DNA of 56,010 nt from Candidatus Methanogaster sp. (GCA_003194445.1 PQXF01000009.1:12194-68203); one strand, 5' to 3'. Shown: positions 6,589 through 42,604, counted from the stretch's first letter. A program made the numbers and translations. The notes: generated by a model not told the origin, from the sequence alone.

Positions 6589-6639
6589 CTACTCACCTCT
6601 TTCTGGTTCATTTGGGTCAATACCCGGCTCCCGATCTCA

Positions 6640-7847: not shown

Positions 7848-7852
7848 GTAAT

Positions 7853-21946: not shown

Positions 21947-22563
21947 TCGAAACACCAGGACTTATGCCGACAGAGGATCTCTTCCCGATCTTTGTGAATG
22001 CGATGTTCACAAAGAACTTCCTCTTGATCATGTTTCTCGGACTCTGCTCTTACGTTGGTCTGACCACCAACTCAGATACCTCAAAAGGCATGTCGATGGC
22101 GGTCACCTTTGTTATGACGATGTCGGCGATCCTCACGTGGCCCATATACTATTATCTCCTGAGCGATGCAAGTATTATAGGGAAGGATCTGACATTCCTG
22201 CGGACGATCTGTTTCATCCTCATCATCGCTTCATTTGTGCAGCTTGTCGAGTTCATCATACGCAAGTTCAGCCCGCCGCTCTACAAGTCGCTCGGGATCT
22301 ATCTTCCGTTGATCGCAACGAACTGCGCGGTTCTTGGTGTGGTGCTGATGAATATACAGGAGGGGTACACGTATGGCGCAAGCATTATATACGCGTTCGC
22401 GGCAGGGCTTGGCTACTCGTGGGTGATGCTTGCAACAGCGGCTGTGCGAGAGAAGTTGATTATGCGTAATGTTGACCTCTTCAACGGCTTCATCGGAGCA
22501 TTCTTTGCAGCGACGATGGTCGCACTAATTGTTGTCAGTTACTTTTCGGTGGTGAAACTATGA
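21943..22563 (+). CDS. rnfA: Rnf complex subunit A
   Basis: FLGLC, FIL.IA..VQ.VE, LGIYLPLI.TNCAVLG. Confidence 0.95.
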   Translation: MIETPGLMPTEDLFPIFVNAMFTKNFLLIMFLGLCSYVGLTTNSDTSKGMSMAVTFVMTMSAILTWPIYYYLLSDASIIGKDLTFLRTICFILIIASFVQLVEFIIRKFSPPLYKSLGIYLPLIATNCAVLGVVLMNIQEGYTYGASIIYAFAAGLGYSWVMLATAAVREKLIMRNVDLFNGFIGAFFAATMVALIVVSYFSVVKL

Positions 22564-23363
22564 CCGTTGATCTTATGAGTTTGATGCCGCCTGCAATCGT
22601 TGTGCTTGGAGCACTCGGATTTGCGATGGCAGGGATGCTCGTCTGGGCGTCAAAGGCGTTCTATGTTCCGACTGATCCGCTTGTTGATGCACTGATCGAA
22701 CTGATGCCCGGAGCAAACTGCGGAGCGTGCGGATATCCGGGATGTGCTGATGCTGCCGAGCATATTGTGGCAGGGGACGTCTCACCTGAGGTGTGTACTT
22801 CATGCGATGCAGAGACGTTTGAACTGATCGGAGAACTGCTCGGAGTGGATATCAGCGCAGCAGAGCCCATGTATCCGGTCACGCTCTGTCAGGGTGGCAC
22901 AAACTGCAAGGACAGATACGATTACATCGGCGCGGATACGTGCAGAGCCGCAATCCTGCTTTCGGGCACGAAGAAAGCCTGCTCATACGGATGCATCGGT
23001 CTTGGCGACTGTGTGCGGGCGTGCATGTTTGATGCGATCGAGATTGCGGATAACGGACTTCCGAGAATCAAGAAGTATAACTGCAAGGGCTGCGGCGCGT
23101 GTGTGACTGCTTGCCCGCAGGATGTGCTCCTCGTAACAAAGGAACACGGTCCGGTCTACGTGGTCTGTGCATCGCATGACAAGCCAAAGTATGTCAAAGA
23201 GATATGCGAGTTCGGATGCATAGGGTGCGGGATATGCAAGAAGAACTGCCCTGAGGGTGCAATCAAGCTTGTCCAGAAGGTTGCCGTGATCGATCAGGAG
23301 AAGTGTAACCAGTGCGGGACATGCATCGATGTCTGCCCGAGAAACGCAATCGTGAAGCTGTGA
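22560..23363 (+). CDS. rnfB: Rnf complex subunit B
   Basis: PGANCGACGYPGC, C.YGC.G.GDC...C.FDAI, several further ferredoxin motifs. Confidence 0.95.
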   Translation: MTVDLMSLMPPAIVVLGALGFAMAGMLVWASKAFYVPTDPLVDALIELMPGANCGACGYPGCADAAEHIVAGDVSPEVCTSCDAETFELIGELLGVDISAAEPMYPVTLCQGGTNCKDRYDYIGADTCRAAILLSGTKKACSYGCIGLGDCVRACMFDAIEIADNGLPRIKKYNCKGCGACVTACPQDVLLVTKEHGPVYVVCASHDKPKYVKEICEFGCIGCGICKKNCPEGAIKLVQKVAVIDQEKCNQCGTCIDVCPRNAIVKL

Positions 23364-23377
23364 TCTTTTATCAGTAC

Positions 23378-23409
23378 AACCACGGGATTTCCATATAAAT
23401 CTCGTGGTT
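23378..23409. terminator. Hairpin between convergent rnfB and HEPN genes, possible bidirectional terminator
   Basis: aaccacgggattt-ccatat-aaatctcgtggtt, 13-bp arms with one G-T pair, followed by a T-rich tract. Confidence 0.5.
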
Positions 23410-23423
23410 CTATAATTTTTTAG

Positions 23424-23957
23424 TTATGTTAATTTTGAAGACAGGTAATTGATAAATTGATGAGCCAAACGATAAAGATCATAAATCTCTTCGACAGTCT
23501 TTTCGATGGGGAATACAGCAAAATTGCCATGTACCAGTTCATTCCGTAAATTTCCTATCTCTAAAAAAGCCCGGATAGATTTTTCCAATTCTGAATTGTC
23601 TTTAACATCCTCACTGGCTTGGTCCTTAAATCCGTCACCGAATAACGAAAAAAATCTATTAGCGTTCCTGGCGCTCCAATCAAAATAAGTATGATATTGC
23701 CGCTCCACTGCTTTATTTTTCACAAAAGATATAATTATTAGATTATTACCAGAATTTTTCTCCACAAAACTTAATATTATATCCTTAATTTCATCTTCAA
23801 AATAACTTGCAGCCGAAAGCAGAAGAACCTTTTTAAGATTGTCATCCGCAACGATTTTTAAGGAGATCTCTTTGTTAGTCTCAAGATAATCAATCATCTC
23901 TTTAAATTCTTTGTACCTCGTCCCAACAATATCCCCATTACTACCCATAACAATCAA
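23424..23957 (-). CDS. HEPN domain protein (RiboL-PSP/MAE_28990-like), putative RNase effector
   Basis: LLLSAASYFE and the Rx4H motif RNELVH; low GC; 1 bp from the DUF262 gene. Confidence 0.85.
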   Translation of the reverse strand: MIVMGSNGDIVGTRYKEFKEMIDYLETNKEISLKIVADDNLKKVLLLSAASYFEDEIKDIILSFVEKNSGNNLIIISFVKNKAVERQYHTYFDWSARNANRFFSLFGDGFKDQASEDVKDNSELEKSIRAFLEIGNLRNELVHGNFAVFPIEKTVEEIYDLYRLAHQFINYLSSKLT

Positions 23958-23958
23958 C

Positions 23959-25140
23959 CTAACGAGATAATATTATTTCTCGGGCTCTTCTCAATCTAGT
24001 CTCTACATTCGTTTTACTTGATGTCTTTGATATAGTAGCGTTTTTGACATCTTCGTCATTCTTAAGTGTGTTTAATTGTTCTGTGGTTATGGAGGGGACA
24101 TTAAGAGACTTTTCATCATAAGATGCTCCACAAACCGCAGTGAAGACTGCTTCATAAATAGAGATGTTGATTCTGTTAGTTTTTCCTGTGAATGCTCGCT
24201 CATCTAAATTTTGGCAGCTATTCAGGAACGAATCGAACAAATTTTCCAGATGCTTAACCTTTTGTTCTGAGAATGATTTTGCATCATTTGAAAATTTATT
24301 AAGAAATTTTACCATCGATGGTTTGTAATTACCCCCATCTACTAACATCGCAAAACCTCGCAACAATATTTCAACATCCTTCATGTGGAGATCCGGTTCC
24401 GGACTACCGATCAACCGTCTCCATCTTGTATCAAGATCAATCCGATATAGCATATCGTAAAAGTCAGAGTGATATAAACTTGTTCGTATTTCCTGCGGTG
24501 TTAGATTCATCCCTCCTGTGTTTAAGCGATTAAATATCTCATAAATTACAGAGTCGTCATCTGGCGGAGAGTTTTGTTTTATAATAATATTTCTTATCGT
24601 CCTCATTTCAAAAGTGTTTTTATACTCTCCGAGAGTCTCATAGTTCAATTTGTTCAATTTATTCTTCTTATCTGGCAATTTCTCTGGCAATTTGAGTTTG
24701 AAATTGCTGAAATAATCATCGTTGTGCAATATATCGTCAGGGATTCTACCCCTCTCGTCGAATATTCTTCTCAATTCATACCTTTTTTCTCTTTTAGGAA
24801 ATCTCATTTTTATAAAATAATAAATAGTCATTAACCGTTGTTGTCCATCAACCACTAAAAACTCATTTTTGGATTTTTCATATAGAAAAATCTGAGGTAC
24901 GGGTATTCCAAATATTATCGATTCTATCAGTTTGGATGCCCTCGTCAGATCCCAGACGTAGTTCCTTTGAAAAACCGGAACTTTGAATATTTCAGATTCA
25001 ATAAAATCAAAAATGGTTTTAATATTGAAATCGTTTGGAAACGTCGTAATGTCATATTCTGTTAGAGAATCGTCTTCATCGGCGTCAGTCTCATCTTCGA
25101 TTTCAAGCGAATTTTCATAGCTGCCATCCATATTTATCAC
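23959..25140 (-). CDS. DUF262 (GmrS/ParB-like NTPase) domain protein
   Basis: P.FQRNYVW, LIES...GIP.P, VVDGQQRL, IF.RLNTGG..L..QEIR. Confidence 0.92.
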   Translation of the reverse strand: MINMDGSYENSLEIEDETDADEDDSLTEYDITTFPNDFNIKTIFDFIESEIFKVPVFQRNYVWDLTRASKLIESIIFGIPVPQIFLYEKSKNEFLVVDGQQRLMTIYYFIKMRFPKREKRYELRRIFDERGRIPDDILHNDDYFSNFKLKLPEKLPDKKNKLNKLNYETLGEYKNTFEMRTIRNIIIKQNSPPDDDSVIYEIFNRLNTGGMNLTPQEIRTSLYHSDFYDMLYRIDLDTRWRRLIGSPEPDLHMKDVEILLRGFAMLVDGGNYKPSMVKFLNKFSNDAKSFSEQKVKHLENLFDSFLNSCQNLDERAFTGKTNRINISIYEAVFTAVCGASYDEKSLNVPSITTEQLNTLKNDEDVKNATISKTSSKTNVETRLRRAREIILSR

Positions 25141-25274
25141 CTTGTATCTATTTATTAACCATCACTATTATATGAACAGTACGTGATTACAGCTCATATC
25201 GTTTCATGCAGTGTAATCAGTATCATCCATGACACTTAAATTTAACCAATCTCTATATTCCCGGTCACTGCCTG

Positions 25275-25500
25275 AAGGAACCTTGTCCGGTCTATGTGGT
25301 CTGTGCATTGCACGATAAGGGCAAGTATGTCAAAGAGATATGCGAGTTCGGATGCATCAGATGCGGGATATGCAAGAAGAACTGCCCTGAAGGCGCAATC
25401 AAGCTTATCCGGAAGGTTGCTGTGATCGATCAGGAGAAATGCAACCAGTGCGGGACCTGCATCGAGGTGTGCCCGAGGAACGCGATCGTGAAGCTGTGAT
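25275..25500 (+). repeat. Diverged copy 1 of the rnfB 3' end (226 bp, matches 23139-23364)
   Basis: Ungapped manual alignment, about 25 mismatches in 226 bp, about half of them synonymous; ends at the same IVKL-TGA; followed by a perfect 10-bp-arm hairpin gatggactcc-caata-ggagtccatc (25498-25522). Confidence 0.95.
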
Positions 25501-25603
25501 GGACTCCCAATAGGAGTCCATCGATGCCACTGCCTGCAAGGGCAGGGCATTAGCGGAGGTATATGTTCCCGAGCGGTTAGATTCAGGCAATGGTGAACGC
25601 AAA

Positions 25604-25685
25604 AGACGGATCAACGCCGAGTTCGGAACAACGATCCTCCTGATCAGCCGCTATCTCGGGTTCGTGAGGGGAATTTCACAACCGC
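25604..25685 (+). pseudogene. Remnant of the C-terminal part of an AtwA-like (MCR component A2 family) ABC ATPase
   Basis: Translates RRINAEFGTTILLISRYLGFVRGISQ, resembling the switch region (RIN.EFGTTI...SH...FV.E.S) of methanogen AtwA-like ATPases, from recall. Confidence 0.55.
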
Positions 25686-25853
25686 GAGATTACACGGTAT
25701 TTGCGTCAATGCAAAACATATCGCCAAGGAGAGGGGCGGCGCAGCAATTACACGAGATCCTTTTCTGTGCCAGTCCCGAGACTTTGGGGGTGTTGCTCGA
25801 TTAACTTTATGTGAGATGGGGGTGTGGCTATTAGCACTGCAAAGGTGATTGTT

Positions 25854-28800
25854 ATGAACCGAGACACCCAGACATTCCACTCAAATACTCTTTTACGACC
25901 GACTATCAGCGTGTGCACACTCCTGATGCTGATTATTGTCGCGGCAGGCGTGGCGGCGGCAGGCATGCCGCCTTTGCCGTACTTCAGTCAGTGCGACTCC
26001 CGATGGGAAAGCGACAAACTGGGCGGCGACGGTCCAACAATATGCAGTCAGGGCTGTGCGCTCACATCTGCCGCGATGGTGATGGTATACTATGGCGTGG
26101 ACACCGATCCGAAGCGGCTGAACAATGCAATTGGGCGTGGGGGCTATGACGCAGGCTATAATATCTACTGGTCTGCTGTCAGGAACGTTTGCCATGATGA
26201 GATCAATCAGATCGAGTATTCTCCGGGAACGGTCAAGCCTTTTGACACGACTGTGCTGAACACTCACCTTGATGCAAAACATCCGGTCATCGTTAATGTG
26301 GGAGGTCACTTTGTGGTGGTGACTGGCAGATCAGATGGGACGTACTACATCAATGACCCAATTTCAAGCGCCAAATCTACGTTGGACGATTATCCAAGCA
26401 GAGTCGGGATGCATATCTACACTGGCAATCCGCCGGACATAAACAAACCTCTCGTCGGCGACTGGAACGGCAATGGAACCGATACAACCGGCATCTACAA
26501 TTACACGACCGCAAATTTTTCGCTTGATAGCGGGTTAAACATCAGTTTCGGCATCTCTGGCGATATTCCGATCACAGGAGACTGGAACGGGGATGGATAT
26601 GACACTATCGGTGTCTTCCGTCCATCGACTGCTCAGTTCTTCCTTGATTATGATAACGATGGCGTTTCTGATATGAACGCAACGTTCGGAGTTATCGGCG
26701 ATGTTCCGGTTGTTGGAGACTGGGACGGCGACGGGGATGATAACATCGGCGTATTTCGACCGAATCATTCTGATACCGGACTTACGATGTTCTTCCTTGA
26801 TCTTGACAACAGCGGTGGATCTGCGGATATGAGCGTGGCGTTTGGCGAGCCTGAGGATCTGCCTGTTATCGGGGACTGGGACGGCGACGGGGATGATAAT
26901 ATCGGGCTGTACCGCCCAGGCAGTACTACCGGCGTATTTTATCTGGATATCGATAACGATGGCGGGGCTGCTGATATCGTGACGCCTGGGTACGGGGATC
27001 TCGGAGATATTCCGATTGCAGGAGACTGGGATGGTGATGGCGAGGATAATATCGGAGTTTATCGACCTGAGACCGGGGAGTTTTTCTTGAATGCTGAGAT
27101 GCCGACTGATGTGGGATTAGTAGCAGAATGGCATTTTGATGAGGGTTCTGGCAACATTTTAAATGATAGTTCAGGAAATGGAAATGATGGGGTAATTTAC
27201 GGCGCAACATGGACAGCAGGGAAATCTGGTCACGCGTTGAGGTTCGATGGAAGCGGTGATTATGTAAACATACCAACCACATCTGATCTCAATCCTGTTG
27301 ATGGCTCTTGGACCGTTGAAGCATGGATAAACATACCAACGCTCCCTCCTTCGGATTATACTTATCCTGTGATGGCGAAACATAATGGCGATATGGATAA
27401 TGGATATACCCTACACATCTCTGGCACCACTAGAACTGTTAACTATATGGTTGACCATTATAAAGGTCCCGTTTACAAAGCTAACAGCATAATTTCAATA
27501 AATACATGGTATCATGTTGCTGGCGTTTTGGATAGGACAACAAACACTTTAAAAATATTTGTAAACGGATCTCAAATGGATTCGACCTCAATATCAGGAC
27601 TTGGGACTATTAATCCGTCAAACCCACTCTGGATTGGTAGATACAATAGAGCAGCTCGTTCAAGGTATGAATACTTCAATGGCACAATAGACGAAGTTCG
27701 CATCTACAACAGGGCATTAACCGCAGATGAAATAAAAGAACATTACGGGGAAATATCTACTTCCGATGGCTTTGATTATCCAGTCGGTGCACCATATATT
27801 ACACAGGCAAATGATGGAGATGGTTGGTACAATGCACAAGATTTTCGAGTTAATAATCATTTAGGAGAAGATTGGAATGGAGAAGATGGTGGGGATACTG
27901 ATTGTGGAGAGCCAGTGTATGCAGTTTCGGAGGGAACGATAGTTTATGCTGCCGATGCGGGATCCGGCTGGGGCAATGTTATGATTGTTCGCCATGAACT
28001 GCCTGATGGAACACAGGTAGAATCTTTATATGCACATCTCCAAAGCATGAGTAAGACCCGTGGAACTGTTGAAAGAAGGGAACAAATAGGAACTATTGGA
28101 AAAGATGGCTGGCCATATTGCCATTTACATTTTGAAATGCGGTTTTCAAATTGTTCTTCATGGGGAAGTCCTGGACCGGGATATAGCACAGATGCGACGG
28201 GTTGGATCGACCCTTCCGATTTTATTGATTTGCATCGCCCCCCTAACTTTCCTGTGGACTGGGCATATTCTGATTTGATTACAATTCAAGAGAATTCCGG
28301 CTCTGATCTGACTGATTACCAGATTCGGGTCGAGTTGAACTCATCAAATTTTGATTTCTCGAAGACACAGTTAGATGGTGCGGATATCCGGTTTGCGAAA
28401 CTGGATGGGACTTTGCTGAGTTACTGGATCGGGACGTGGAACTCGACTGGCGAGAGCGCGAAGGTCTGGGTCAAGGTGTCGAGTATTCCAGCGAGTGGTA
28501 CTGCAACGATCAGGATGTACTACGGAAATTCGGTCGCTACAAGCGAGAGTAACGGAATTGCGGCGTTTGAGTTCTTTGATGATTTTTCAACGTATACGCT
28601 GGCAAACTACGATACTGAATGCAGTGGTATGAATCCCCCAATTGTATGCGGTTTTGATTGGGATAGTATTAATGAGCAGTTAATAGTTTCGTGTTTGGGC
28701 GGTGATTGTCCGAATTATGGAAATAGGTTTTATCCCAAAAATCTCAATTTGACAAATTCGGTTGCAAGCTGTGATTTTAAGATCGTAGAAGAATATGATC

Positions 28801-29402
28801 CTGATACCTTCTTTGCGATTTTTTTGCGGTACCAAAACAGATCCGAAGGTTATGCAACACGATACTCCACTAAAAATTACGTTTCGCCCCTCATAGGTAG
28901 GCATACTGATGAAGGATTACTGGTCATAACCTCACCGGACCCAAATGCAAATGGAAAACTGTTTGATTGGACATATCGCACTCCTTTATCTGAGTATATT
29001 AATACAAACACATGGTACAACATGGAGTTTGCAGTTTGGGACGATAATCTGAAACTCTCTTTGAATGGCATCGAAAAACTTTCTTGTATGGATGATGATA
29101 TTACCATAAATGGCGGCGTAGGATTTGAATTCCATGACAATGGGGGTCGAATTGATAACATCATTGTCCGCCAATACACAGCCCCCGAGCCGACCGTAGA
29201 CCTGCTACAGAAAGGCGACCTCAACTCTGACGGCAAACTCACCCCCGCAGACCCCGCGATCGCGCTTGCAATCGCAGCCGGCGGTTCCGCCTCGTGCGAC
29301 CCGTCAATGCTCGCCGCCGCCGATGTCAGTGGCGACAACCGCGTCACCTCGCTCGACGCACTGATGATCCTGCAGGCGGCGGCAGGAGCGACAGAACTAT
29401 AA
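25854..29402 (+). CDS. Secreted multidomain protein: signal peptide, C39-like peptidase, GDWxGDG beta-propeller repeats, LamG, M23 peptidase, DUF2341, lectin-like domain, dockerin
   Basis: PYFSQ.D.RW..GC..TS.AM...GGHFVV..G..INDP (C39-like); five GDW[ND]G[DN]G repeats; W.FDEG.G...D.SGNGN.G and F.G.IDEVRIYNRAL (LamG); HLGEDWN, YAHL, HLHFE (M23); DIRF...LSYWI..W...VWVKV (DUF2341); GDLNSDG...ADVSGD..VTSLDALMILQ (dockerin). Confidence 0.88.
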   Translation: MNRDTQTFHSNTLLRPTISVCTLLMLIIVAAGVAAAGMPPLPYFSQCDSRWESDKLGGDGPTICSQGCALTSAAMVMVYYGVDTDPKRLNNAIGRGGYDAGYNIYWSAVRNVCHDEINQIEYSPGTVKPFDTTVLNTHLDAKHPVIVNVGGHFVVVTGRSDGTYYINDPISSAKSTLDDYPSRVGMHIYTGNPPDINKPLVGDWNGNGTDTTGIYNYTTANFSLDSGLNISFGISGDIPITGDWNGDGYDTIGVFRPSTAQFFLDYDNDGVSDMNATFGVIGDVPVVGDWDGDGDDNIGVFRPNHSDTGLTMFFLDLDNSGGSADMSVAFGEPEDLPVIGDWDGDGDDNIGLYRPGSTTGVFYLDIDNDGGAADIVTPGYGDLGDIPIAGDWDGDGEDNIGVYRPETGEFFLNAEMPTDVGLVAEWHFDEGSGNILNDSSGNGNDGVIYGATWTAGKSGHALRFDGSGDYVNIPTTSDLNPVDGSWTVEAWINIPTLPPSDYTYPVMAKHNGDMDNGYTLHISGTTRTVNYMVDHYKGPVYKANSIISINTWYHVAGVLDRTTNTLKIFVNGSQMDSTSISGLGTINPSNPLWIGRYNRAARSRYEYFNGTIDEVRIYNRALTADEIKEHYGEISTSDGFDYPVGAPYITQANDGDGWYNAQDFRVNNHLGEDWNGEDGGDTDCGEPVYAVSEGTIVYAADAGSGWGNVMIVRHELPDGTQVESLYAHLQSMSKTRGTVERREQIGTIGKDGWPYCHLHFEMRFSNCSSWGSPGPGYSTDATGWIDPSDFIDLHRPPNFPVDWAYSDLITIQENSGSDLTDYQIRVELNSSNFDFSKTQLDGADIRFAKLDGTLLSYWIGTWNSTGESAKVWVKVSSIPASGTATIRMYYGNSVATSESNGIAAFEFFDDFSTYTLANYDTECSGMNPPIVCGFDWDSINEQLIVSCLGGDCPNYGNRFYPKNLNLTNSVASCDFKIVEEYDPDTFFAIFLRYQNRSEGYATRYSTKNYVSPLIGRHTDEGLLVITSPDPNANGKLFDWTYRTPLSEYINTNTWYNMEFAVWDDNLKLSLNGIEKLSCMDDDITINGGVGFEFHDNGGRIDNIIVRQYTAPEPTVDLLQKGDLNSDGKLTPADPAIALAIAAGGSASCDPSMLAAADVSGDNRVTSLDALMILQAAAGATEL

Positions 29403-29438
29403 TCCGGAACTGTTCAATCCCACAAAAAGAGGCTTTCG

Positions 29439-29756
29439 ATGAAATTACTGGAGAATCTAAAGAAGTCGATATCCAGAAGTCGATATAACATCAGCCTGCA
29501 CGCAAAAAACGAGATGAGCTTAAAAGAAGACGATATATCTGAGAAAGAATTGATTGAATCAATACTGGGCGGAGAGGTAATAGAGAACTACACAGACGAC
29601 AAGCCATTCCCAAGCTGCCTCGTATTCGGAAGGACTGATGAAGGCAGACCGATACATGTGGTCTGTGCGTACTCGAAGGAGGATGATGTGGCAATAATTA
29701 TAACAACTTATGAACCAGATGTGATTAGATGGATCGATTACAGAAGGAGGGTTTAA
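29439..29756 (+). CDS. DUF4258 (BrnT/RelE-like) putative toxin
   Basis: S.HA..EM, GEVIE.Y.DD.P.PS.L.FG....RP.H.VC, IT.Y.PD...W.D...R. Confidence 0.88.
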   Translation: MKLLENLKKSISRSRYNISLHAKNEMSLKEDDISEKELIESILGGEVIENYTDDKPFPSCLVFGRTDEGRPIHVVCAYSKEDDVAIIITTYEPDVIRWIDYRRRV

Positions 29757-30032
29757 ATGATCGTATCAAAATGCGCGATATGCGGCGGAAAAGTTGAAGA
29801 AAAAGAGGTCAGTGAGACGGTGAGGGTCGGAAATGACTTCGTTGTGGTGGAGAACGTCATAGCAGGTGTATGCGCTGGATGTGGGGAGCGATATTATCCG
29901 CCAGGAGTTGTTGATAGACTAAGAGATATCGAGATGCATGCAATGGATCGGGGGGCATTGAAGGGGCTGCATATAGTGGGGCATACATACAGGATAAACT
30001 ATGGCGCCCCAATTCATGGCATTTCTGTTTGA
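29757..30032 (+). CDS. YgiT/MqsA-type Zn-finger putative antitoxin
   Basis: C.ICGG...V..V.A.VC..CGE.YY; abuts the DUF4258 gene. Confidence 0.88.
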   Translation: MIVSKCAICGGKVEEKEVSETVRVGNDFVVVENVIAGVCAGCGERYYPPGVVDRLRDIEMHAMDRGALKGLHIVGHTYRINYGAPIHGISV

Positions 30033-30061
30033 CCCCTCTGTGCGTGGCTTACCACTACGTT

Positions 30062-30241
30062 GCGACCTTAGCCACGACGACCAGATTACCTCCCAGACGC
30101 CGCGCTTGCAATCGCAGCCCGCGGTTCCGCTTCGTGCGATGCCGCACGCTCGCCGCCGCTGACGTGAGTGGCGACCACCGCGTCACCTCGCTCGACGCGC
30201 TCATGATCCTGCAGGCGGCGGGTGGGAGAATAACGCTGTGA
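30062..30241 (+). pseudogene. Degenerate dockerin remnant duplicating the 3' end of the exoprotein gene (about 29215-29400)
   Basis: cgcgcttgcaatcgcagcc..gcggttccgc..cgtgcga and AAADVSGD.RVTSLDALMILQAA match the upstream dockerin, with indels. Confidence 0.85.
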
Positions 30242-30322
30242 CAACCCCACGCTTGCGAACAGACTCGTGCACTCGGACGATTGTGGCCGTAACAATCGCA
30301 TCCGCCGTGGTATGCTTTGTGT

Positions 30323-30573
30323 GTGCGGGACCTGCATCGATGTCTGCCAGAGGAACGCGATCGTGAAGTTGTGAGTGGGTGTGTGCAATTGCTCACACCA
30401 CGATCTCGTGCCGTACACCTGGCTCAGGGTTCTACTTGTGCACCTTCCATAAGACCTCTTCGCCGAACCTGTCGATCAACTGCAAGGTTCTCCGGAGCAC
30501 GGTCTTTGGTCCGAGCACCGCGCCCGGGTCTCTCGGGATCGTCGATGTAATCGGTCTCCATCATGAACCTGCT
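30323..30573. repeat. Copy of the rnfB/tatD convergent junction: rnfB last 52 bp (30323-30374) plus tatD 3' ~200 bp (30375-30573, matches ~35795-35994)
   Basis: gtgcgggacctgcatcgatgtctgcc..aggaacgcgatcgtgaagttgtga followed by near-identical tatD sequence through tcggtctccatcatgaacctgct. Confidence 0.93.
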
Positions 30574-30653
30574 CGATGAGCTGTTCGGCGATCTCGACCC
30601 GGTAACGCTCCGTTATGTCACCAACTCGCTGAAATGGATCAATACCCGAGTTT
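30572..30653 (+). pseudogene. Second remnant of an AtwA-like ABC ATPase (Walker B/D-loop region)
   Basis: Translates LDELFGDLDPVTLRYVTNSLKWINT, cf. recalled LDEPFGDLDP.TLR.V.NSLK.IN. Confidence 0.65.
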
Positions 30654-30731
30654 CTCATCTTCCAGCTCTTATCGCTTAACAGAAATTCCTCTCTTCCGGA
30701 TGCTCTGACCTAATCACACGGTCCGGAAATC

Positions 30732-32408
30732 TTAAAAGTACCTGATCTGATACCTGTACCCCTGCTCCACCAAAAATAGCTGCCGATTACTCCCGAACGT
30801 CTGTTCAACGGTACCTTTCGAGACCAAGGTGTAGAAATGAGATGCATGTTCTTTCGGACGAAGAATGCGCCCCAACCGTTGCGCCTCCTCCTGACGCGAA
30901 CCATAAGTGCCTGATATCTGAATCATAACACTGGCATCAGGCAGATCCACGGAAAAGTTTGCGACCTTGGATACCACAAGCGTATTGATCTCACCCTTCC
31001 TGAACTCGTCATATAGCTTCTCCCTATCATCCTGTTTGGTCTTACCGGTGATGATCGGAAGCTTTAGTGATTTGGCAAGCTTCTCTATCTGCGAGATGAA
31101 TTGACCGATGATCAGGACGCTCTCGCCTGCGTGGTTCTCCAGGAGCTCGCACACAAGCTCTTTCTTGCGCTCGTTCTCTGCTGCGATGCGAAACTTAGCC
31201 CGTTTATCAGCATGAGCGTAGTTAAGCTCCTCTTCAGGCGAAAGCGGGACGCGATACTCGGTACAGATGGCTTCTGCGATGTAGCCGCGGCTCTCAAGCG
31301 TCTTCCACGGAACATCGTACCGCTTCGGACCGATCAGCGCAAAGACATCCTCCTCCTTCCCATCCTCGCGCACCAGCGTCGCAGTAAGCCCGAGCCGTCG
31401 TCTGGCTTGAATTTCTGTTGTTGCACGAAATACCGGCGCCGGGAGTATATGCACCTCATCATATATAATTAGCCCCCAGTTATGCTCGGTAAAGATCTTT
31501 AAGTTGTGAAGCGGACTATCCTTTGTTTTACGGTGTGTTAGCATCTGGTATGTGGTGATTGTGATCGGCTTAATCTCTTTGATGCGCCCGGTATACTCGC
31601 CGATCTCCGCTTCGTTGACGCTGGTCTTTGCGATAAGTTCATCGCGCCACTGCGCAACAGAGACCGTATTGGTGGCGATGATCAACGTGTAACTTGATAC
31701 CTGTGCCATCGTTCCAAGCCCTATAATCGTCTTACCAGAACCACACGGAAGAACAATCACTCCACTGCCACCGGTTTTATCTCCTGCACAGTAAAAGAGA
31801 TCTACAGCCTCCTCCTGGTAATCGCGCAGCGCAAATGAGTCGCCTCCGAGATCAATGTCGCGCAGAGTAATGTCGAATCGTTCGCCGTCCAGATAGCCGC
31901 ACAGGTCCTTGACAGGGTAGCCCGCCTTTATCAACGCATGCTTAAGATCGCCGCGTCTTGCTTGCGGTATGAATAGTCCGGGAATGTTGCCGTTATCCAC
32001 CTCCACCCAGAAGCCTTCCAACGACTCGTTGTTACTGATTCGTTCCAGAATAGGGGAGTCTGTAACAACAAGCTCCAGATAGCCCTCTGCGACTTTGGCT
32101 TTCTGTAACACCAGCTTACCATAAGTCTCGTACCACTCCCTCATATCAGTGATGACATTTGACGGAACGCTGTAACGCGAGAACTCTTCAAGACCGCAAG
32201 TGATCTCTTTAAACGGCACATCCAGTGCTGCCGCATTCCAGAGCGAGAGCGGCGTTACCCGATATGTGTGGATGAACTCTGGCGATTTTACCAGCTCTGC
32301 AAATAGTGATAGGAAATCCCGGCATTCTACGTACCCCGGGTGCCCGACCTCAAGCATCAACGTGCGATCACTCTGGATTATGAGTGGCTTTTGTGGTTGT
32401 GAGCTCAT
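30732..32408 (-). CDS. Bacterial-type XPB/Rad25 SF2 helicase/translocase
   Basis: PLIIQSDRTL.LEV, ELVKSPE..HTYR.TPLSLWNAAA, LPCGSGKT, DEVH, LGLTATLVREDG, GSRQEEAQRLGRILRPK. Confidence 0.95.
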   Translation of the reverse strand: MSSQPQKPLIIQSDRTLMLEVGHPGYVECRDFLSLFAELVKSPEFIHTYRVTPLSLWNAAALDVPFKEITCGLEEFSRYSVPSNVITDMREWYETYGKLVLQKAKVAEGYLELVVTDSPILERISNNESLEGFWVEVDNGNIPGLFIPQARRGDLKHALIKAGYPVKDLCGYLDGERFDITLRDIDLGGDSFALRDYQEEAVDLFYCAGDKTGGSGVIVLPCGSGKTIIGLGTMAQVSSYTLIIATNTVSVAQWRDELIAKTSVNEAEIGEYTGRIKEIKPITITTYQMLTHRKTKDSPLHNLKIFTEHNWGLIIYDEVHILPAPVFRATTEIQARRRLGLTATLVREDGKEEDVFALIGPKRYDVPWKTLESRGYIAEAICTEYRVPLSPEEELNYAHADKRAKFRIAAENERKKELVCELLENHAGESVLIIGQFISQIEKLAKSLKLPIITGKTKQDDREKLYDEFRKGEINTLVVSKVANFSVDLPDASVMIQISGTYGSRQEEAQRLGRILRPKEHASHFYTLVSKGTVEQTFGSNRQLFLVEQGYRYQIRYF

Positions 32409-34120
32409 AGAATATCCTCGGTCTTGATTGTGTAATCTAACAGTTTCTTACTGACTTTCTTTACCTCTGGTTCGTAACGTTTGTCAAAGGAGAGTGTCAA
32501 TTTACCCCAATCAGCAGCAACCGGGCATCCGGCAACTATAAGTCCATTTCGGAACTCTTCCATCAATTCTTTTGCCGGGAAGTGAAATGTGATCCGAACT
32601 TCCCGTTTGATCGTCACACGTTTCTTTGTTTTTGCTTTTGTCTTTGATTTCGCTTTTGAAACGCCCATATCGCGTCTGGGGAATACCGTGTCTGTACCGT
32701 CCGGGAGGCGCGTAAAAGCCGAAGAGCGATGTTTTATGCGGAGAGGGATCAACTCCTTCTGCAGAAGATGCGCAAACAACTGGTCGGGCGAACGCACGAT
32801 CTTAATTGCAGGCGATATGGATCCGATCGTGAATTCGTCGAGTTCAGGCAAATTGCGATCTCCCTCGAGAAGCACGACATCCTCGTAGAGTGTGAATGCT
32901 TCTGAAGCCCCAGCCCACTCTTCGAGTTCGATTCGAACATTCTGTGGCAGTTTCTGACCGCTCATCTTCTCCAGGAGCTTGATCACATCAAAATCTTCTC
33001 TTTCGCTTAATTGGGTCAGAACCTTCTTTTTCCGAAGTTTTAAGATGTTTGCTCTGTCTTTTGTTACGACATCCGCAAGTTTTGTCAGTTGCGTAAGAAT
33101 CAGAACCGGATACAATTCCGATTCCACATGTATCTCAAAATTCGGCTGCACTGTAACTTTGGGCTCTATGATCTCATGGCTCATCACGTGCAGGAACAGA
33201 TCATTGATCCGAAACGCCAGAAGCTGATTCATCTCGGGCAGAAGTCCTTTATACTCTGTTTCGGAGTAGGCAACCTCGATATATCCTAAAATAAGGGGCA
33301 ATCCTTCAAGGAATCGTTCCACAAAGCGACCTTCCACTCGCTCAAACGCATCCGCATCACCCTCTGAAATCTGCATCCTCTCGCCCCACCTCTCCTTTTG
33401 CTCCTGAAAGTTGCCATACCGACCCTTCTTTGCATACTCTTTATGTGAATATTTGGGATTCTCCGGAATGAGGAAGAATGGATGATGTTCTTTCAGATAT
33501 CGGATCAATGAGGCTGTAGTATACCAAACACCAGGCGTGCAGGATTGCAAAACCTTGGTAATAAACCGTCTTGCTTTGCCAAAGTCTAATCCCGGAATAA
33601 TGCCAGTCCCCGATCCCCAGGTCGAGAACCCGGATAGCCTGCCAAGTATACTTGTCTCGTAAAACTCATTTTCACCATCGGGATAATTTTTTATTACTAC
33701 GTCCTGAAGCTTCTTCTCCTGCTCTATTAACGGTAAACTGATGAACTCTTCGTATCTTTTGGTATCAACGTCGATGTAATTGTCAGGAAATGACGGTTCA
33801 CTGCTGTAATACCCCATATACCTCCCCTCGGTGTCATAGTTTACGAACTTGAATGTGAGCGCCAGGCAATCGACATAATCTATCCAGTCAGAACGTCCGT
33901 ACGCCTCTACTTCTTCTACCAGATAAGAATCGCTCATGAGTTTTGCCAATCGCTTTTGATCAGACTTGTTCAACTCATTACTCCGGTGTAACCGTTTTAC
34001 ATCGCGCTCTTTCACATACTCAACAAAAGCATGTAGATCATGGCGCAGATCGCACTGGTTGGAAACAATGCTCAGTTCGTCGATATCCGCCTGGGTTAAG
34101 TCTGGTTTTGGTTGCATCAT
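32405..34120 (-). CDS. Helicase-associated (Helicase_C_3, XPB-NTD-like) domain protein
   Basis: VTVQPNFEI, L..LA......., LPQNV..ELEEW motif; overlaps the XPB start. Confidence 0.8.
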   Translation of the reverse strand: MMQPKPDLTQADIDELSIVSNQCDLRHDLHAFVEYVKERDVKRLHRSNELNKSDQKRLAKLMSDSYLVEEVEAYGRSDWIDYVDCLALTFKFVNYDTEGRYMGYYSSEPSFPDNYIDVDTKRYEEFISLPLIEQEKKLQDVVIKNYPDGENEFYETSILGRLSGFSTWGSGTGIIPGLDFGKARRFITKVLQSCTPGVWYTTASLIRYLKEHHPFFLIPENPKYSHKEYAKKGRYGNFQEQKERWGERMQISEGDADAFERVEGRFVERFLEGLPLILGYIEVAYSETEYKGLLPEMNQLLAFRINDLFLHVMSHEIIEPKVTVQPNFEIHVESELYPVLILTQLTKLADVVTKDRANILKLRKKKVLTQLSEREDFDVIKLLEKMSGQKLPQNVRIELEEWAGASEAFTLYEDVVLLEGDRNLPELDEFTIGSISPAIKIVRSPDQLFAHLLQKELIPLRIKHRSSAFTRLPDGTDTVFPRRDMGVSKAKSKTKAKTKKRVTIKREVRITFHFPAKELMEEFRNGLIVAGCPVAADWGKLTLSFDKRYEPEVKKVSKKLLDYTIKTEDIL

Positions 34121-35538
34121 TCATTCCTCGCCTTCTTGACCACGTGCCCCGACGCGCTCACTATCTTCTGAATCGCCGGGAGAACGCCACAGGGAAAGGC
34201 GATATAATCATCCGGAAGCGATACAAGTTGCGAACCGTTGCATGACTTTTCGATCTGCACCTTAAGGCTCAGATCTTTTACCTGTGCAACCATCAGGTCT
34301 TCATGAATGATCTGTTTACCCCATCTCTTTTCAGCAATCTCAATTGCACTGCGAAAACCAGATGAATTCTCTCTGAGCCACTCAAAAATACCTTCTTTTC
34401 GAACCGTCGTGAGCGCATCCCCAATCTTAATGATATCTGCGGTTGCTCGCAGGTTGGCGTTATGAATATCCATGAGTGCGATCGAAGCTATCACTTCCAG
34501 TGCGGTATAAGGGATTTTCACCAGATCCAGCACTACCGTACCATCGGGCGCAATCTGTAGGTACTGATCAGGCGTTGGTGCGGCTGCGTCGTCTAAGGAA
34601 TCATCAGGTAACCGATAGTATGCCGTCATATCCACCACGACTTTTACAAGGCAGCCCCACTCCCAGCCCGCCTCGCAGATCTGTTCGCAGGGGTGATTTA
34701 CATCATCTCCTGTAAATATCTTGAGTATCACTTCGAGACCGTCGGCGGGTAGCCATTCATGCTCTCCAAGTTGTGCAATTGCATAGAGTGCAGCATCAAC
34801 GGGAGCCATATCATCGCTCGGATAACCTGGATAACCCCGATCCTCAGTATCGGTTTTAATAGACGCACGCATGCAAGCTTTCTGCCAATCCAACAGGTAT
34901 TTTGCTCTGAACTGTTCGCGCCCGATAGACAGATTACCCTCGTTGATTGTAAGTTTGAACGACCGTCTGTCTGATTTTGATAATGGAGATGGTCTTTTTC
35001 TCTCCCCTCCCGCAAGCTCAAGCAGTTTATCACGCAGAACTTCTCTCTTGAACTTTCCGGTTTTTTTGAATTTGGAAGCCTTGACGAGTGGTGGAAGAAA
35101 ACTCCCGAATTCCGGAGGAAAATAGAATTGTAAGCGTTCCATCTTGGTAGACTTTCCATATGTTTCTCGCTCTATGGCGATGAGTACACCCTTTCGCACC
35201 AGATTACTCTTCACTTTTTTGAATGTTTCTTTATACCGTTTGGTAAAAGTCATGTAATAATATCCTTTTGTGGATTCTGCGCAACCATATAATCTCTCGA
35301 AGTACTCGATACCAACTTCCTCCTTAATCTTATCAAGCAAGTGGAGGAACACAACTTCCTTGTAGGTTAATGAGTCCAGTACTTCCTTTATGCCAATCGT
35401 GGAGATGAAGAAGTTCTCAAAGACGTCACGAGAAGTCGCCTCTTTGGCAGAAAAACCGCGGCTTTTGCAGATCGCCTTTATATCGGAGTCAGTGATATCG
35501 CTTTTACACATCTGCTTCAGCATACTTTGCGTATCCAT
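34117..35538 (-). CDS. Hypothetical protein, first gene of the XPB operon, possibly with a degenerate Helicase_C_3-like domain
   Basis: Likely start MDTQSML at 35538; overlaps the next gene; LQIAPDGTVVL segment resembles the QPNFEI strand. Confidence 0.7.
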   Translation of the reverse strand: MDTQSMLKQMCKSDITDSDIKAICKSRGFSAKEATSRDVFENFFISTIGIKEVLDSLTYKEVVFLHLLDKIKEEVGIEYFERLYGCAESTKGYYYMTFTKRYKETFKKVKSNLVRKGVLIAIERETYGKSTKMERLQFYFPPEFGSFLPPLVKASKFKKTGKFKREVLRDKLLELAGGERKRPSPLSKSDRRSFKLTINEGNLSIGREQFRAKYLLDWQKACMRASIKTDTEDRGYPGYPSDDMAPVDAALYAIAQLGEHEWLPADGLEVILKIFTGDDVNHPCEQICEAGWEWGCLVKVVVDMTAYYRLPDDSLDDAAAPTPDQYLQIAPDGTVVLDLVKIPYTALEVIASIALMDIHNANLRATADIIKIGDALTTVRKEGIFEWLRENSSGFRSAIEIAEKRWGKQIIHEDLMVAQVKDLSLKVQIEKSCNGSQLVSLPDDYIAFPCGVLPAIQKIVSASGHVVKKARNE

Positions 35539-35700
35539 TGGAATAGCCTCTCTTTGGGTATACCTTAAGTCCATATGTCGATGACTTTTGTCCCTTCTTT
35601 TTAGACGCGGGGCATCGATCATAATACTTACCAAATCTCGTGGATTTCGCACAATGATATAATTCCATTAACATCAAAACACACAAGTGGATCAGGTGCC

Positions 35701-35781
35701 TGCCATGATCGATCAAGAGAAATGCACTCAGTGCAGGACATGCATCGATGTGCGCCCGATAACATGATTGTGAAACTGTGA
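35701..35781 (+). repeat. Diverged copy 3 of the rnfB 3' end, directly facing the true tatD stop
   Basis: tgccatgatcgatcaagagaaatgcactcagtgcaggacatgcatcgatgtgcgcccgataacatgattgtgaaactgtga aligns with 23282-23363. Confidence 0.88.
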
Positions 35782-35814
35782 GTAAATGAGCCGGTGTGCG
35801 GTGTGGGCAGTTGC

Positions 35815-36654
35815 TCATACAACGATCTCGATGCCATACACCTGCTCAGGGTTCTCCTTGTGCACCTTCCAGAAAACCTCCTCACCGAACTTATCGACCA
35901 ACTGCAAGGTTCTCCGGGGCACGGTCTTTGGCCCAAGCACCGCGCCGGGTCTCTCGGGGTCGTCGATGTAATCGGTCTCCATCATGAACCTGCTTCCCTC
36001 GATAAGCGCGCTCTCGATCGCGCCCTTGCCTGCAAGCACCCCCGGAAAGAGCCCTTCGCGTTCAAAAACATGTATCAGCGGCGGAGCATAATGCTTGACC
36101 ACCTTTCCGGGCGAAATCCCGGATCTCTTCGCAATCGCGGTAAGATCCGCGATCACTGCCGCGTCCGCAGTCTCGGTGTGGAGTTGCACAGCGCATCCGG
36201 CGTCACGCGCGAGAGTCATGCCGTAAGCCATGATGCGGTTGGACGCATCCCACGCGCTTCCAGAGACCTCGTAATGCGGTCTTCCGGTCTTGATGGCTAT
36301 CGCCTCATTCTCACAAACGAAACGTTGTGCGATCTCGAGCCCGGCAATCATCAACTCCTCTGCCCGCGTCTGCCCCACGCGGTCGGATAGCACCGTGATC
36401 TCGGCGGGATGGACGCCAAGCACAGGAAACGCGGTAACTCCAATATCAGACCGGTTCACCTCACGCGCGATACTGATCGTCTCTTCGAAGACCGGTTCGT
36501 AGTCACTTGGCTTTGTTATCGCAATACCAAGTGTCCATGATGGCTTTGATACAAGGATGATGTGTGTGCCACCCGCGCGGGCAAACTCCTTGACCGCCAT
36601 GAGTCCCTTTCCCCGGCGATCGAGATGGATATGATTGTCAGTTATCGGGATCAT
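35815..36654 (-). CDS. tatD: TatD-related metallohydrolase (archaeal)
   Basis: DNHIH, GVHPAE, GRPHY, QLHTE, KHYA, METDY.DDP.RPGAVLGPKTVP. Confidence 0.9.
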   Translation of the reverse strand: MIPITDNHIHLDRRGKGLMAVKEFARAGGTHIILVSKPSWTLGIAITKPSDYEPVFEETISIAREVNRSDIGVTAFPVLGVHPAEITVLSDRVGQTRAEELMIAGLEIAQRFVCENEAIAIKTGRPHYEVSGSAWDASNRIMAYGMTLARDAGCAVQLHTETADAAVIADLTAIAKRSGISPGKVVKHYAPPLIHVFEREGLFPGVLAGKGAIESALIEGSRFMMETDYIDDPERPGAVLGPKTVPRRTLQLVDKFGEEVFWKVHKENPEQVYGIEIVV

Positions 36655-39947: not shown

Positions 39948-40032
39948 TATCTGAAGGAAACTTTTTAATTTGCTCTGGTCGGTTGAAAACATGATGCCAA
40001 CCCGGCAAATACAAATATGATTAGATAGGTGT

Positions 40033-40104
40033 AATCAGTGAAATCGGTGTTAATCTGTGGCTAAAACAGTATCAGCCACATATTAACGCAGATGGACACA
40101 GATT
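40033..40104. repeat. Imperfect palindromic (REP-like) element, copy A
   Basis: aatcagtgaaatcggtgttaatctgtggct-aaaacagtatc-agccacatattaacgcagatggacacagatt. Confidence 0.8.
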
Positions 40105-40261
40105 AGCGGTGTAAACGACTTTTCAGATCGATAGTTCTCCATTATGGCAGTTGTGGTTGCGTAAGACAATCCGGCGTTCCCAGAAAACAATAAAAAGACT
40201 CATCTGAAGCTTGTTTGGACGTTACTGTGACCTTTTAAACGAGGAACTATTGTCTGAAGTT

Positions 40262-41008
40262 TCATCCGGACGAGCATAGAGCATCGTGCAGCCGCACCAC
40301 ATCCCCGATCACGACGATCGCAGGAGCCTTAACCCCGCGATCCTTTGCGATACCGACGATCGTGCTTAAACTTCCTGTGGTCACCACCTGATCATCCCGT
40401 GTTCCGCGCTCGATTATCGCAACAGGCGTATCAGGGTCACTGCCATACCGCATCAATTCCGGGATGTACGTGCCAAGCGTGCTCACCCCCATCAGGATCA
40501 CGAGCGTGCCCAACGACTGCGAAAGCCATTCCCAATCGAGCATCGATCCGTCTTTCTTCTGCTCATGCCCTGTGATGATCGTTACCATCGATGCGCTATC
40601 CCTGTGCGTAATCGGGATGCCAGCATACGCGGGAACCGCTATTGCCGACGTGATGCCGGGCACCACCTCGAACTCAATCCCGGCTCTCCGAAGCTCCAGT
40701 GCTTCCTCGCCACCCCTTCCAAAGAGGTATGGGTCGCCGCCCTTCAGACGAACCACCATATTTCCCTGCGATGCGTAATCGACCAGCAACCGGTTGATCT
40801 CATCCTGTGAAAGTGTGTGGTCGCCTGCGTATTTGCCGACATCGATCAGTTCCGCGCTTTTCGGAAGCGAGTTAAGTATTTCAGGTCCGGGCAGTTGGTC
40901 GTACACGATCACGTCCGCCTCCTTGGTAAGGCGCAGCGCCTTGATCGTCAGGAGTTCGGGGTCGCCGGGACCGGAGCCGACCAGATAGACCTTCCCATTC
41001 GGATGCAT
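40262..41008 (-). CDS. cobA: Uroporphyrinogen-III C-methyltransferase
   Basis: [49 protein letters not shown]. Confidence 0.95.
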
Positions 41009-41050
41009 GGTAATCCCACTTGCATTAAGCATAATAACAGTTTCGTGAAT

Positions 41051-42224: not shown

Positions 42225-42358
42225 CTCGATGCCTCGTGTTTCTGTGTCACTTTATCCGTACTTGATAAAGTAAGTTATGGTTGCGTCGAACATACTTGGT
42301 CGGGTTTTGGGGCACAATCGAGAACTCCAGTGAAAACACTCTGATTTTGTGGTAACCA

Positions 42359-42455
42359 AATTCGTGTAATTCGCGTCATTCGTTGTCATTCGTGAATGCG
42401 TAGCATCGGCGCAGCAATCTCTCGGTGCTGATTTTATCACGAATGCCACGAATCG
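42359..42455. repeat. Short ATTCG/CGAAT repeat tract with an inverted partner
   Basis: aattcgtgtaattcgcgtcattcgttgtcattcgtg ... cacgaatgccacgaat. Confidence 0.55.
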
Positions 42456-42530
42456 AGTAAATCACTGGATTTTAGACAGTGTATGGTTGTGGTAAATAAG
42501 CACTGAACGTGGAAGCGATTAGATTTATGA

Positions 42531-42604
42531 AATCAGTGGAATCGATGTTAATCTGTGGCTAAAAACCCTTATCAGCCACAGATTAACGCGGATGAACACA
42601 GATT
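42531..42604. repeat. Imperfect palindromic (REP-like) element, copy B
   Basis: aatcagtggaatcgatgttaatctgtggct-aaaaacccttatc-agccacagattaacgcggatgaacacagatt, same orientation as copy A. Confidence 0.8.

Follow-up and report, generated by a model that had tools for sequence, protein, structure and literature searches.

A stacked, integrase-free cassette array bounded by copies of housekeeping gene ends at the rnfB/tatD junction of a Candidatus Methanogaster genome

Results

The stretch of DNA analyzed here, referred to as the window, comprises 56,010 nucleotides from Candidatus Methanogaster sp. (GCA_003194445.1 PQXF01000009.1:12194-68203) and contains, between the convergent genes rnfB and tatD, an array of three cassettes that are delimited by truncated copies of the ends of these two genes. 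All coordinates are window positions. The window is part of contig C169 of the source genome bin, here referred to as G000, which amounts to 3.6 Mb in 169 contigs, is 91.6% complete and, according to profile searches, belongs to an archaeon that encodes McrA, an Rnf complex, TBP, and F420 enzymes. Its affiliation may be ANME-2-like. The intact rnfB gene (22560-23363, plus strand) is the final gene of the rnf operon and was identified through the NCBIfam model rnfB_Methano (9e-91) and a Pfam match; its last 225 bp (23139-23363) constitute the master copy of the repeat found in the array. On the opposite side, the native intergenic hairpin (35782-35814) adjoins the intact tatD gene (35815-36654), both on the minus strand, and tatD and the TBP gene come 12.4 kb after the rnf operon. 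The interval between rnfB and tatD holds three unrelated cargo blocks, each bounded by gene-end copies. The G+C content of the flanks is ~50%, compared with 35-38% for cargo 1.

Three copies of the rnfB 3' end, here named f1, f2, and f3, lie on the plus strand downstream of the intact gene. Copy f1 (25275-25499/25500), which is placed after cargo 1, spans 226 bp, is 89% identical to positions 23139-23364, and has an open frame that ends at TGA. Copy f2 (30323-30374), after cargo 2, measures 52 bp and is 90-92% identical, and copy f3 (35701-35781/2), after cargo 3 and beside the true hairpin and tatD, measures 81 bp with 80-84% identity and is the most decayed and the oldest rnfB copy of the array. 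The stop codon is the end point of every copy, with the last 52 bp being common to all of them, and f1 has 4-5 further bases in common with the spacer of empty sites in relatives. Directly behind f2 lie a copy of the intergenic hairpin (30375-30392) and a copy of the last 181 bp of tatD (30393-30573), both on the minus strand, the latter with an internal stop. Since the block from 30323 to 30573 aligns as a single piece with positions 35731-35994 (82% over 267 columns, a 251/264-bp unit), the rnfB end, the hairpin, and the tatD end were copied together. A genome search revealed no additional rnfB or tatD copies elsewhere in G000, save for a weak ferredoxin-like match.

Cassettes 1 and 2 each open with a hairpin on the plus strand. 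The first of these, hp1 (23364-23425), is a hairpin with a T-run located directly after the stop codon of rnfB, and the second, hp2 (25500-25555), is a double hairpin; their fold z values relative to shuffled sequences are -4.5 and -6.5, respectively. The hp1 sequence is also present behind the intact rnfB gene of the related genomes G009, G022, G006, and G018, and hp2 follows directly behind intact rnfB in G003 and G011. Hairpins of different cassette types are unrelated in sequence.

Cargo genes were assigned with Pfam, NCBIfam, and PADLOC on all 10 long open reading frames (ORFs) of the array. Cargo 1 consists of a RiboL-PSP HEPN gene (23424-23957, minus strand; Pfam, 2e-22) and a DUF262/GmrSD_N gene (23959-25140, minus strand; GmrSD_N, 9e-33; PADLOC NsnA, 1e-62), which are predicted to form an NsnA-like defence pair. 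Cargo 2 encodes a secreted exoprotein of 1192 amino acids with C39-like, LamG, M23, DUF2341, and dockerin domains (25824-29402, plus strand). Nested in this cassette are genes for a DUF4258 protein (29439-29756, plus strand) and a YgiT zinc-finger protein (29757-30032, plus strand), a predicted toxin-antitoxin (TA)-like pair, followed by a copy of the dockerin-encoding 3' end of the exoprotein gene (30101-30241, plus strand) that is 88% identical to the original and reaches the equivalent stop codon. Within positions 29261-30241, the pair is bracketed by the exoprotein 3' end and its copy, both reaching the stop, and it is a nested instance of the gene/cargo/gene-end-copy signature. It is of note that at this position G003 has another DUF4258/YgiT pair, with an identity of 36-39%. 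Cargo 3 is an operon of three genes (30732-35652, minus strand). One of them encodes an XPB helicase (30732-32408, minus strand) that scores 811 bits with the NCBIfam equivalog model NF045503 (cut-off, 610) and has the domain order of XPB. The two others encode proteins of 571 and 511 amino acids without a Pfam family, for which a PDB sequence search gave no match at E <= 1. Their ESM Atlas look-alikes are mostly from bacterial clusters, part of them with an XPB-type Helicase_C_3 domain; judged from these resemblances, both proteins look like XPB partners, and nothing suggests that either is a recombinase.

An earlier note, made from the window sequence alone, had described the three rnfB copies with lengths of 226 bp (~89% identity), 52 bp, and ~80 bp, the tatD 3' copy, the exact termination of the rnfB copies at the stop codon, the hairpins after the first two rnfB copies, and a gene content of DUF262-HEPN, exoprotein plus TA pair, and XPB operon. 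All of this was confirmed. Its estimate that about half of the changes in the 226-bp copy are synonymous was too low, as 16 of the 25 differences are of this kind.

The note had also stated that no recombinase lies within the array, and this agrees with our results. No integrase or transposase was found among the 10 long ORFs with the three resources named above, nor with the Atlas, which was used for the two proteins without a family. Furthermore, six-frame searches of the whole genome yielded no match in G000 to either the tyrosine recombinase family PF00589 or the serine recombinase family PF00239, and 14/14 and 12/14 control genomes, respectively, were positive. Not even an Xer-like recombinase domain was seen in the 3.6 Mb of G000 with these two families. 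In genome family f1 (a handle not to be confused with copy f1), PF00589 matches were detected in 10 of 18 genomes, the matches of G006, G009, and G011 being short and interrupted by stops; of 12 genomes from other families of the order, 11 gave matches, with 1-17 per genome in sister families. None of 20 proteins from the downstream regions of G014, G006, G017, and G013 is a recombinase, and the contig of G009 has a short tyrosine recombinase pseudogene, which is located >20 kb past the far end of the array of that genome.

To compare the junction across relatives, the window proteins and an empty-junction probe were mapped onto the region downstream of rnfB, which was found in 28 of the 41 genomes searched and from which 18 loci of 17 relatives were taken. 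In line with the expectation in the earlier note of empty sites and different cargo, 4 of the 17 relatives are empty, 1 has all three cassettes, and the others have subsets or other cargo. At the empty junctions (G001, G002, G004, and G005), the rnfB and tatD stop codons are 21-29 bp apart with one hairpin between them and no scar. G009 carries all three cassettes in the same order on a 40.9-kb contig. The XPB operon is present alone in G010 and G007, cassette 2 is located directly behind intact rnfB in G011 and G003, and in G022 cassette 1 comes first, after which the contig ends. Reduced, partly deleted cassettes are seen in G018 and G020. A fourth cargo, encoding a DUF4352 protein, is found in G013 and G017, and the characteristic sequence with which it begins is located behind rnfB copies in G012, G018, and G020 as well. 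The housekeeping genes that come after rnfB in G014 and on contig 27 of G006 were not counted as cargo and were treated as a different synteny or a rearrangement. In G006, the intact rnfB gene and the cassette 1 hairpin are followed by unrelated housekeeping genes on contig 27 (L047), and an rnfB fragment with the XPB operon is located on contig 80 (L054); this split stems from a rearrangement at the repeat or else from a break in the assembly.

Across the relatives, cargo boundaries always fall at rnfB copies, and each cassette type opens right after one. The sequences that follow rnfB stop codons belong to a few types, each tied to one cargo; depending on the genome, the rnfB copy that precedes a given type is either intact or a fragment. 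The units of the array are therefore composed of hairpin, cargo, and rnfB fragment and are independently present or absent. The XPB cassette has two unrelated left ends (window positions 30574-30731 versus loci L040, L050, and L054): in G010, G007, and contig 80 of G006, a hairpin element lies directly after the rnfB stop, and in G000, G009, and G003, the left end is the tatD copy plus ~100 bp of other sequence. XPB was detected in 10 of 26 genomes. The 4 genomes with an empty site, which are 73-94% complete, gave no XPB match, nor did any of 10 genomes from outside genome family f1, and XPB is thus an accessory gene in these archaea. In a tree of the right flank, the occupied genome G003 nests with the empty genomes G004 and G005 (support, 97/96), and the occupied genome G010 falls into the same clade (100/100) as the empty genomes G001 and G002. 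Because occupied and empty genomes are interleaved on this tree, repeated gain or loss is required.

The copies themselves differ in how they have diverged. Of the 25 sites at which f1 differs from the intact rnfB end, the 16 synonymous ones correspond to a ratio of nonsynonymous to synonymous substitution rates (dN/dS) of 0.11, and comparisons of intact rnfB genes between species gave 0.06-0.11. Most of the divergence of f1 therefore arose while both copies were functional genes in different lineages. For f3, the comparison between G000 and G009 gave a dN/dS of 1.15, meaning that this copy decays neutrally. The proposal in the earlier note that the copies diverged as functional alleles thus holds for f1. 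In G003, however, f3 differs from the intact rnfB end of the same genome at only 1 of 82 bases, whereas f3 of G000, G009, and G010 is 15-21% different from every other copy, and f3 of G003 must hence have been refreshed recently.

Traces of exchange were also found within the cassettes and the repeats. G000 and G009 (L038) are 88-97% identical along the region but ~100% identical over positions 26958-29157, a 2.2-kb tract inside the exoprotein gene that indicates a recent exchange between two species-level genomes. Both long rnfB copies of G000 have a variant that is unique to them among the genomes compared. The f1 copies of G009, G018, G020, and contig 80 of G006 have a common 1-bp insertion in the 5' part and differing 3' allele types; in G018, G020, and G009, the intact and fragment copies are complementary block mosaics, and the allele switches fall at several positions of the 226-bp repeat. 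The junction between cargo 1 and f1 is identical in G000, G009, and contig 80 of G006, which indicates a single origin and subsequent exchange. Based on these alignments, we read the mosaics as the probable result of repeated exchange and conversion and not as proof of one crossover.

The earlier note had further predicted that duplicated gene ends flank cargo elsewhere in the genome. A self-comparison of every G000 contig, using naive ORFs, identified 471 local direct-repeat pairs, 99 of which consist of a long ORF and a fragment. Seventeen of these 99 pairs end no more than 12 bp from a stop codon, with the fragment being located downstream in 16 cases and upstream in 1, and 9 further pairs extend 13-143 bp beyond the stop, all with a downstream fragment. 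The offsets are concentrated around the stop, lying between -4 and +4 bp in 15 of 101 pairs of an initial scan. Inverted pairs numbered 34; 7 were a gene plus fragment, and 3 of the 7 include the 3' end. About 7 loci are of a mirror type, with a 5' fragment upstream of the gene. Altogether, the signature of a gene, cargo, and a downstream copy of the gene's 3' end is present at ~23 loci besides the rnfB/tatD array, with repeats of 50-470 bp. Examples are a cobB-like gene, a dockerin protein gene, and the fragment, followed by pheT; a geranylgeranyl reductase gene followed by genes for a reverse transcriptase and an AAA-TPR protein and the fragment; an ABC ATPase gene with three unknown genes and the fragment; an unknown gene for a 177-amino-acid protein with genes for archaeal ATPases and LamG/DUF11 proteins and the fragment; and a SpoIIM-like gene with genes for an ATP-grasp and a 7TM protein and the fragment. 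At the reductase locus, the site is empty in G003, G004, and G006. At the cobB locus, it is empty in G004, and G001 and G003 have ~1.1 kb of other content. Among 25 genomes, the cobB insertion occurs only in G000 and the reductase insertion only in G000 and G011. We also considered a rule by which the intact 3' end would in every case be of foreign origin and the fragment would be the native one; this was inconsistent at the reductase, cobB, and rnfB loci and was dropped.

Sequencing runs were examined as assembled contigs (Logan) from four runs. Contigs from the sample that is the candidate source of this DNA tile the array at an even depth (20-31 for X1 and 35-48 for X2) and break exactly at the words shared by the repeats, 23192-23216 and 25328-25352, and at the dockerin and tatD repeats. 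As a consequence of these breaks, the contigs are uninformative about both excision and the linear order in G000. Two skips from f1 to tatD (X3, 25470>35807; X6, 25450>35766) were considered as excision products. They carry 18-30 other letters, those of X3 matching the decayed f3 of a G010-like relative, and both skips are read as junctions of relatives and not as excision. The order of the array is supported independently by the 40.9-kb contig of G009 and in part by G003.

Other repeats and clusters were noted elsewhere in the window. A gene for a phage-tail-sheath-like protein (5041-6588) and a gene for an AAA ATPase with a winged-helix domain (7853-10036) make the region 5041-10036 look like part of a contractile injection system cluster. 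Direct repeats at 40019-40110 and 42517-42610 (84%) enclose a tetrapyrrole methylase gene and an N-terminal piece (267 amino acids) of an aldehyde:ferredoxin oxidoreductase, and positions 40019-42610 may be another rearranged or inserted block. Tandem repeats of 162 bp (96%) are present at 2748-3166 within an ORF of 385 amino acids without a family. The neighbouring genes at 42860-43579 and 43576-45567 (TPR/DUF7779, STAND-like) have a common 157-bp N-terminal repeat, and the TPR-rich 3' part of the latter contains tandem units of 126 bp (45124-45488).

Discussion

The data presented here describe three cassettes that are stacked at a convergent gene junction and bounded by copies of the ends of the two resident genes. 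We think it reasonably probable that this array was built by recombinase-free pop-in and pop-out through homologous recombination, by which three or four cassettes were stacked at the rnfB/tatD junction. Incoming DNA that carries cargo together with a stretch of a conserved gene end would recombine with the resident gene via the homologous recombination machinery of the host. In the simplest form, a circle would enter by one crossover of the Campbell type (pop-in), and the product would be an intact gene, followed by the cargo and then by a 5'-truncated copy of the gene end. Each newcomer would settle beside the intact gene and move older cassettes outward, so that the XPB operon would have arrived first, the exoprotein/TA cassette second, and the HEPN-DUF262 cassette last. 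Conversely, recombination between any two copies (pop-out) would cleanly delete the cassettes between them, restore an empty junction, and free a transmissible circle. What we infer in this scheme are the circular intermediate, the route of transfer, and the first duplication of each cassette; for this first duplication, joining mediated by microhomology has been put forward in the case of the MIC island (PMC12667266).

Several observations bear on this scheme. The anatomy of the array, the repeat-bounded presence and absence of cassettes in relatives, the divergence of f1 under purifying selection, the recombination tracts, the absence of PF00589 and PF00239 matches, and the recurrence of the signature were all directly observed. 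On either side of the XPB cassette lies a copy of a 290-bp stretch that extends from the rnfB end across the spacer into the tatD end, with the left copy stopping at junction position 511 (in tatD) and the right copy starting at position 222 (in rnfB). One crossover between the chromosome and a circle with this stretch yields exactly such an arrangement, which cannot be produced by a double-crossover replacement. The same pattern recurs in the later cassettes, which involve 52 bp and 226 bp of rnfB and each of which would have landed beside the intact gene. Serial accretion of cassettes at housekeeping 3' ends without an integrase, as proposed in the earlier note, is thus supported by the empty sites, the divergence of f1, the lack of a recombinase, and the ~23 further loci. 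Those predictions of the note that could be checked were all borne out.

A number of points weigh against this scheme. The contigs of the four runs showed neither a circle nor an excision junction nor a mixed population. The genome-wide recombinase search covered PF00589 and PF00239 only, so that enzymes of the DDE, HUH, and Cas1 types were not searched for, and plasmids and viruses are often left unbinned in addition to the bin being 91.6% complete. The allele mosaics are patchy and display no single clean crossover, and the two different left ends of the XPB cassette do not follow from the scheme. Moreover, at least four cassette types have a hairpin as their first element and start at a distance of only 0-5 bp from the stop codon, which homologous recombination alone does not predict. 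These starts may result from selection for an intact rnfB gene within a spacer of 18-33 bp, combined with donor spacers that cannot be aligned, and they also fit a structure-specific enzyme. The XPB identities roughly follow the flank tree, and vertical descent with repeated loss explains much of the distribution. Lastly, of the ~23 further loci, which were defined on naive ORFs, 5 were annotated and 2 were compared with relatives, and some of the unannotated ones may be decayed tandem paralogues.

Three other explanations were considered. The cassettes could be remnants of site-specific integrative elements, or elements mobilized in trans, that target the 3' end of rnfB or its terminator hairpin and whose integrase was lost or resides on an unbinned element. 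The start of every cassette 0-5 bp after the stop with a hairpin alongside would be accounted for in this way, and repeated site-specific integration classically results in tandem stacks punctuated by partial copies of the target, as portrayed for tRNA arrays (10.1101/2020.12.28.424599); room for it is also left by the incompleteness of G000 and by the tyrosine recombinase pseudogene of G009, even if the latter is located more than 20 kb past the array. We nevertheless consider this explanation unlikely, as the array has no integrase and the 3.6 Mb of G000 have no PF00589 or PF00239 match, integrases are scarce in the family, and the repeats are long, unequal (52, 81, 226, and 290 bp), and internally switched between alleles at several positions. 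Many target specificities would be needed, too, for ~23 loci with different anchor genes and repeats of 50-470 bp.

Alternatively, each duplication could have arisen once in an ancestor by illegitimate or microhomology-mediated insertion, with vertical inheritance ever since, variety created by deletion, and no horizontal spread. Such a history, for which there is a parallel in the microhomology-mediated origin proposed for the MIC island (PMC12667266), is compatible with the neutral in-place decay of f3, the partly deleted cassettes in G018 and G020, and the rough agreement of XPB protein identities with the flank tree. It is, however, difficult to reconcile with the dN/dS of 0.11 between f1 and intact rnfB, with the ~100% identical 2.2-kb tract of G000 and G009 against a background of 88-97%, or with the fresh f3 in G003 (1 of 82 bases), whose nearest kin, G004 and G005, are empty. 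The low G+C content of cassette 1 (35-38%) and the restriction of the cobB insertion to G000 and of the reductase insertion to G000 and G011 among the 25 genomes argue in the same direction, and we regard purely vertical descent as improbable. Even less credible, to the point of being hardly worth entertaining, is a chimeric assembly in which alternative strain versions of one junction were joined at shared rnfB words. It is true that G000 is a metagenome bin of 169 contigs and that the assembly graph is ambiguous at the words where the source-sample contigs break. However, the same order is seen in G009 with more strongly diverged copies, and in part in G003; the depth of the source contigs is even over the array; a strain bubble would rejoin at tatD and not at the rnfB end; and the copies differ by 8-20% (8-10% for the 52-bp copy) and are hence distinct sequences.

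Recombinase-free pop-in and pop-out has a published precedent. The MIC island of Methanococcus maripaludis is described as a 12-kb island between 221-bp direct repeats of a conserved gene's 3' end (219/221 identical) and, according to that description, has no enzyme for transposition or integration; its spontaneous loss by recombination between the repeats leaves a clean hybrid gene, and the model proposed for it includes a circle capable of re-entry through homologous recombination (PMC6181927). The rnfB/tatD array resembles the island in its host, which is of the methanogenic archaeon type, in its array without an integrase, and in its direct repeats, which consist of a conserved gene 3' end and a 5'-truncated copy around nonhomologous cargo. 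It differs in that the island as described is a single one at one gene, whereas three to four cassettes are stacked here between 80-92% identical copies of two convergent gene ends, the content is combinatorial over at least 13 species-level genomes, some of the cargo is of the defence type, and ~23 further loci exist. In addition, loss of the MIC island was demonstrated experimentally (PMC6181927), whereas here such loss may underlie the scar-free empty junctions of four relatives. The idea is therefore less new than the earlier note assumed, since an integrase-free island with a duplicated gene 3' end that is lost by homologous recombination had, as far as that account goes, already been reported (PMC6181927). 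New here are that cassettes are stacked serially at a convergent junction, that their content is combinatorial across species, that the cargo includes defence and surface genes, and that there is a sign of a general route of gene gain in a lineage poor in integrases.

Similarities to other systems are more limited. Minimal mobile elements, as outlined for Neisseria, and recombination-driven hotspots likewise consist of variable cassettes between conserved flanks that are exchanged by homologous recombination without mobility genes (PMC3787668, PMC5635113), and different cassettes between the same conserved flanks without such genes are what we found at the rnfB/tatD junction. In the models as presented there, however, a double crossover replaces the content and leaves no partial copies of the flanking genes (PMC3787668, PMC5635113), whereas serial addition has left truncated ends here. 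Tycheposon-type tRNA arrays, in the form in which they have been described, are alike in that newcomers displace older elements and in their partial target copies, integrase loss, and defence cargo, but they depend on a tyrosine recombinase together with a short att core (10.1101/2020.12.28.424599), while G000 has neither a PF00589 nor a PF00239 match and the repeats are long, unequal, and mosaic. No tyrosine or serine recombinase by which an integrative element could be recognized was thus found in the cassettes or in the genome.

The likeness to integrons that the earlier note had drawn is an analogy only. Serial accretion at one site and hairpin-forming cassette borders are shared, but there is no IntI (0 PF00589 matches), no attI, and no structured attC or other common attC-like element, as the hairpins differ between cassette types, and the cassettes have their own orientation and promoters. 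A comparable tandem accretion is that of integrative and conjugative elements and cis-mobilizable elements (ICE/CIME) at the 3' end of fda in Streptococcus thermophilus. The host archaea of the array are not known to take up DNA by transformation. A literature search, the reach of which did not include subscription journals and supplements, did not turn up any account of gene-end-bounded cassettes being stacked in methane-oxidising archaea.

The accessory genomes of uncultured methane-oxidising and methanogenic archaea are large, but few mobile elements can be recognised in these organisms. We tentatively put forward that, in this integrase-poor family, recombinase-free pop-in and pop-out at housekeeping gene ends might be a main route by which accessory genes are acquired. 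Circles carrying a gene end would enter relatives via RadA-type recombination, insertions at convergent junctions would survive best, and repeated use of a site would build integron-like stacks of defence and surface genes, with the truncated ends serving as portable homology arms between species. If true, this would account for the gain, stacking, and shedding of defence systems, TA pairs, and dockerin surface proteins, for the location of islands at convergent gene ends, and for the truncated housekeeping ends that litter these genomes. The arrangement of gene, cargo, and downstream 5'-truncated end is also a simple signature by which recent acquisitions can be spotted in metagenome bins, and a mechanism hitherto documented for one corrosion island would become a general, serial process.

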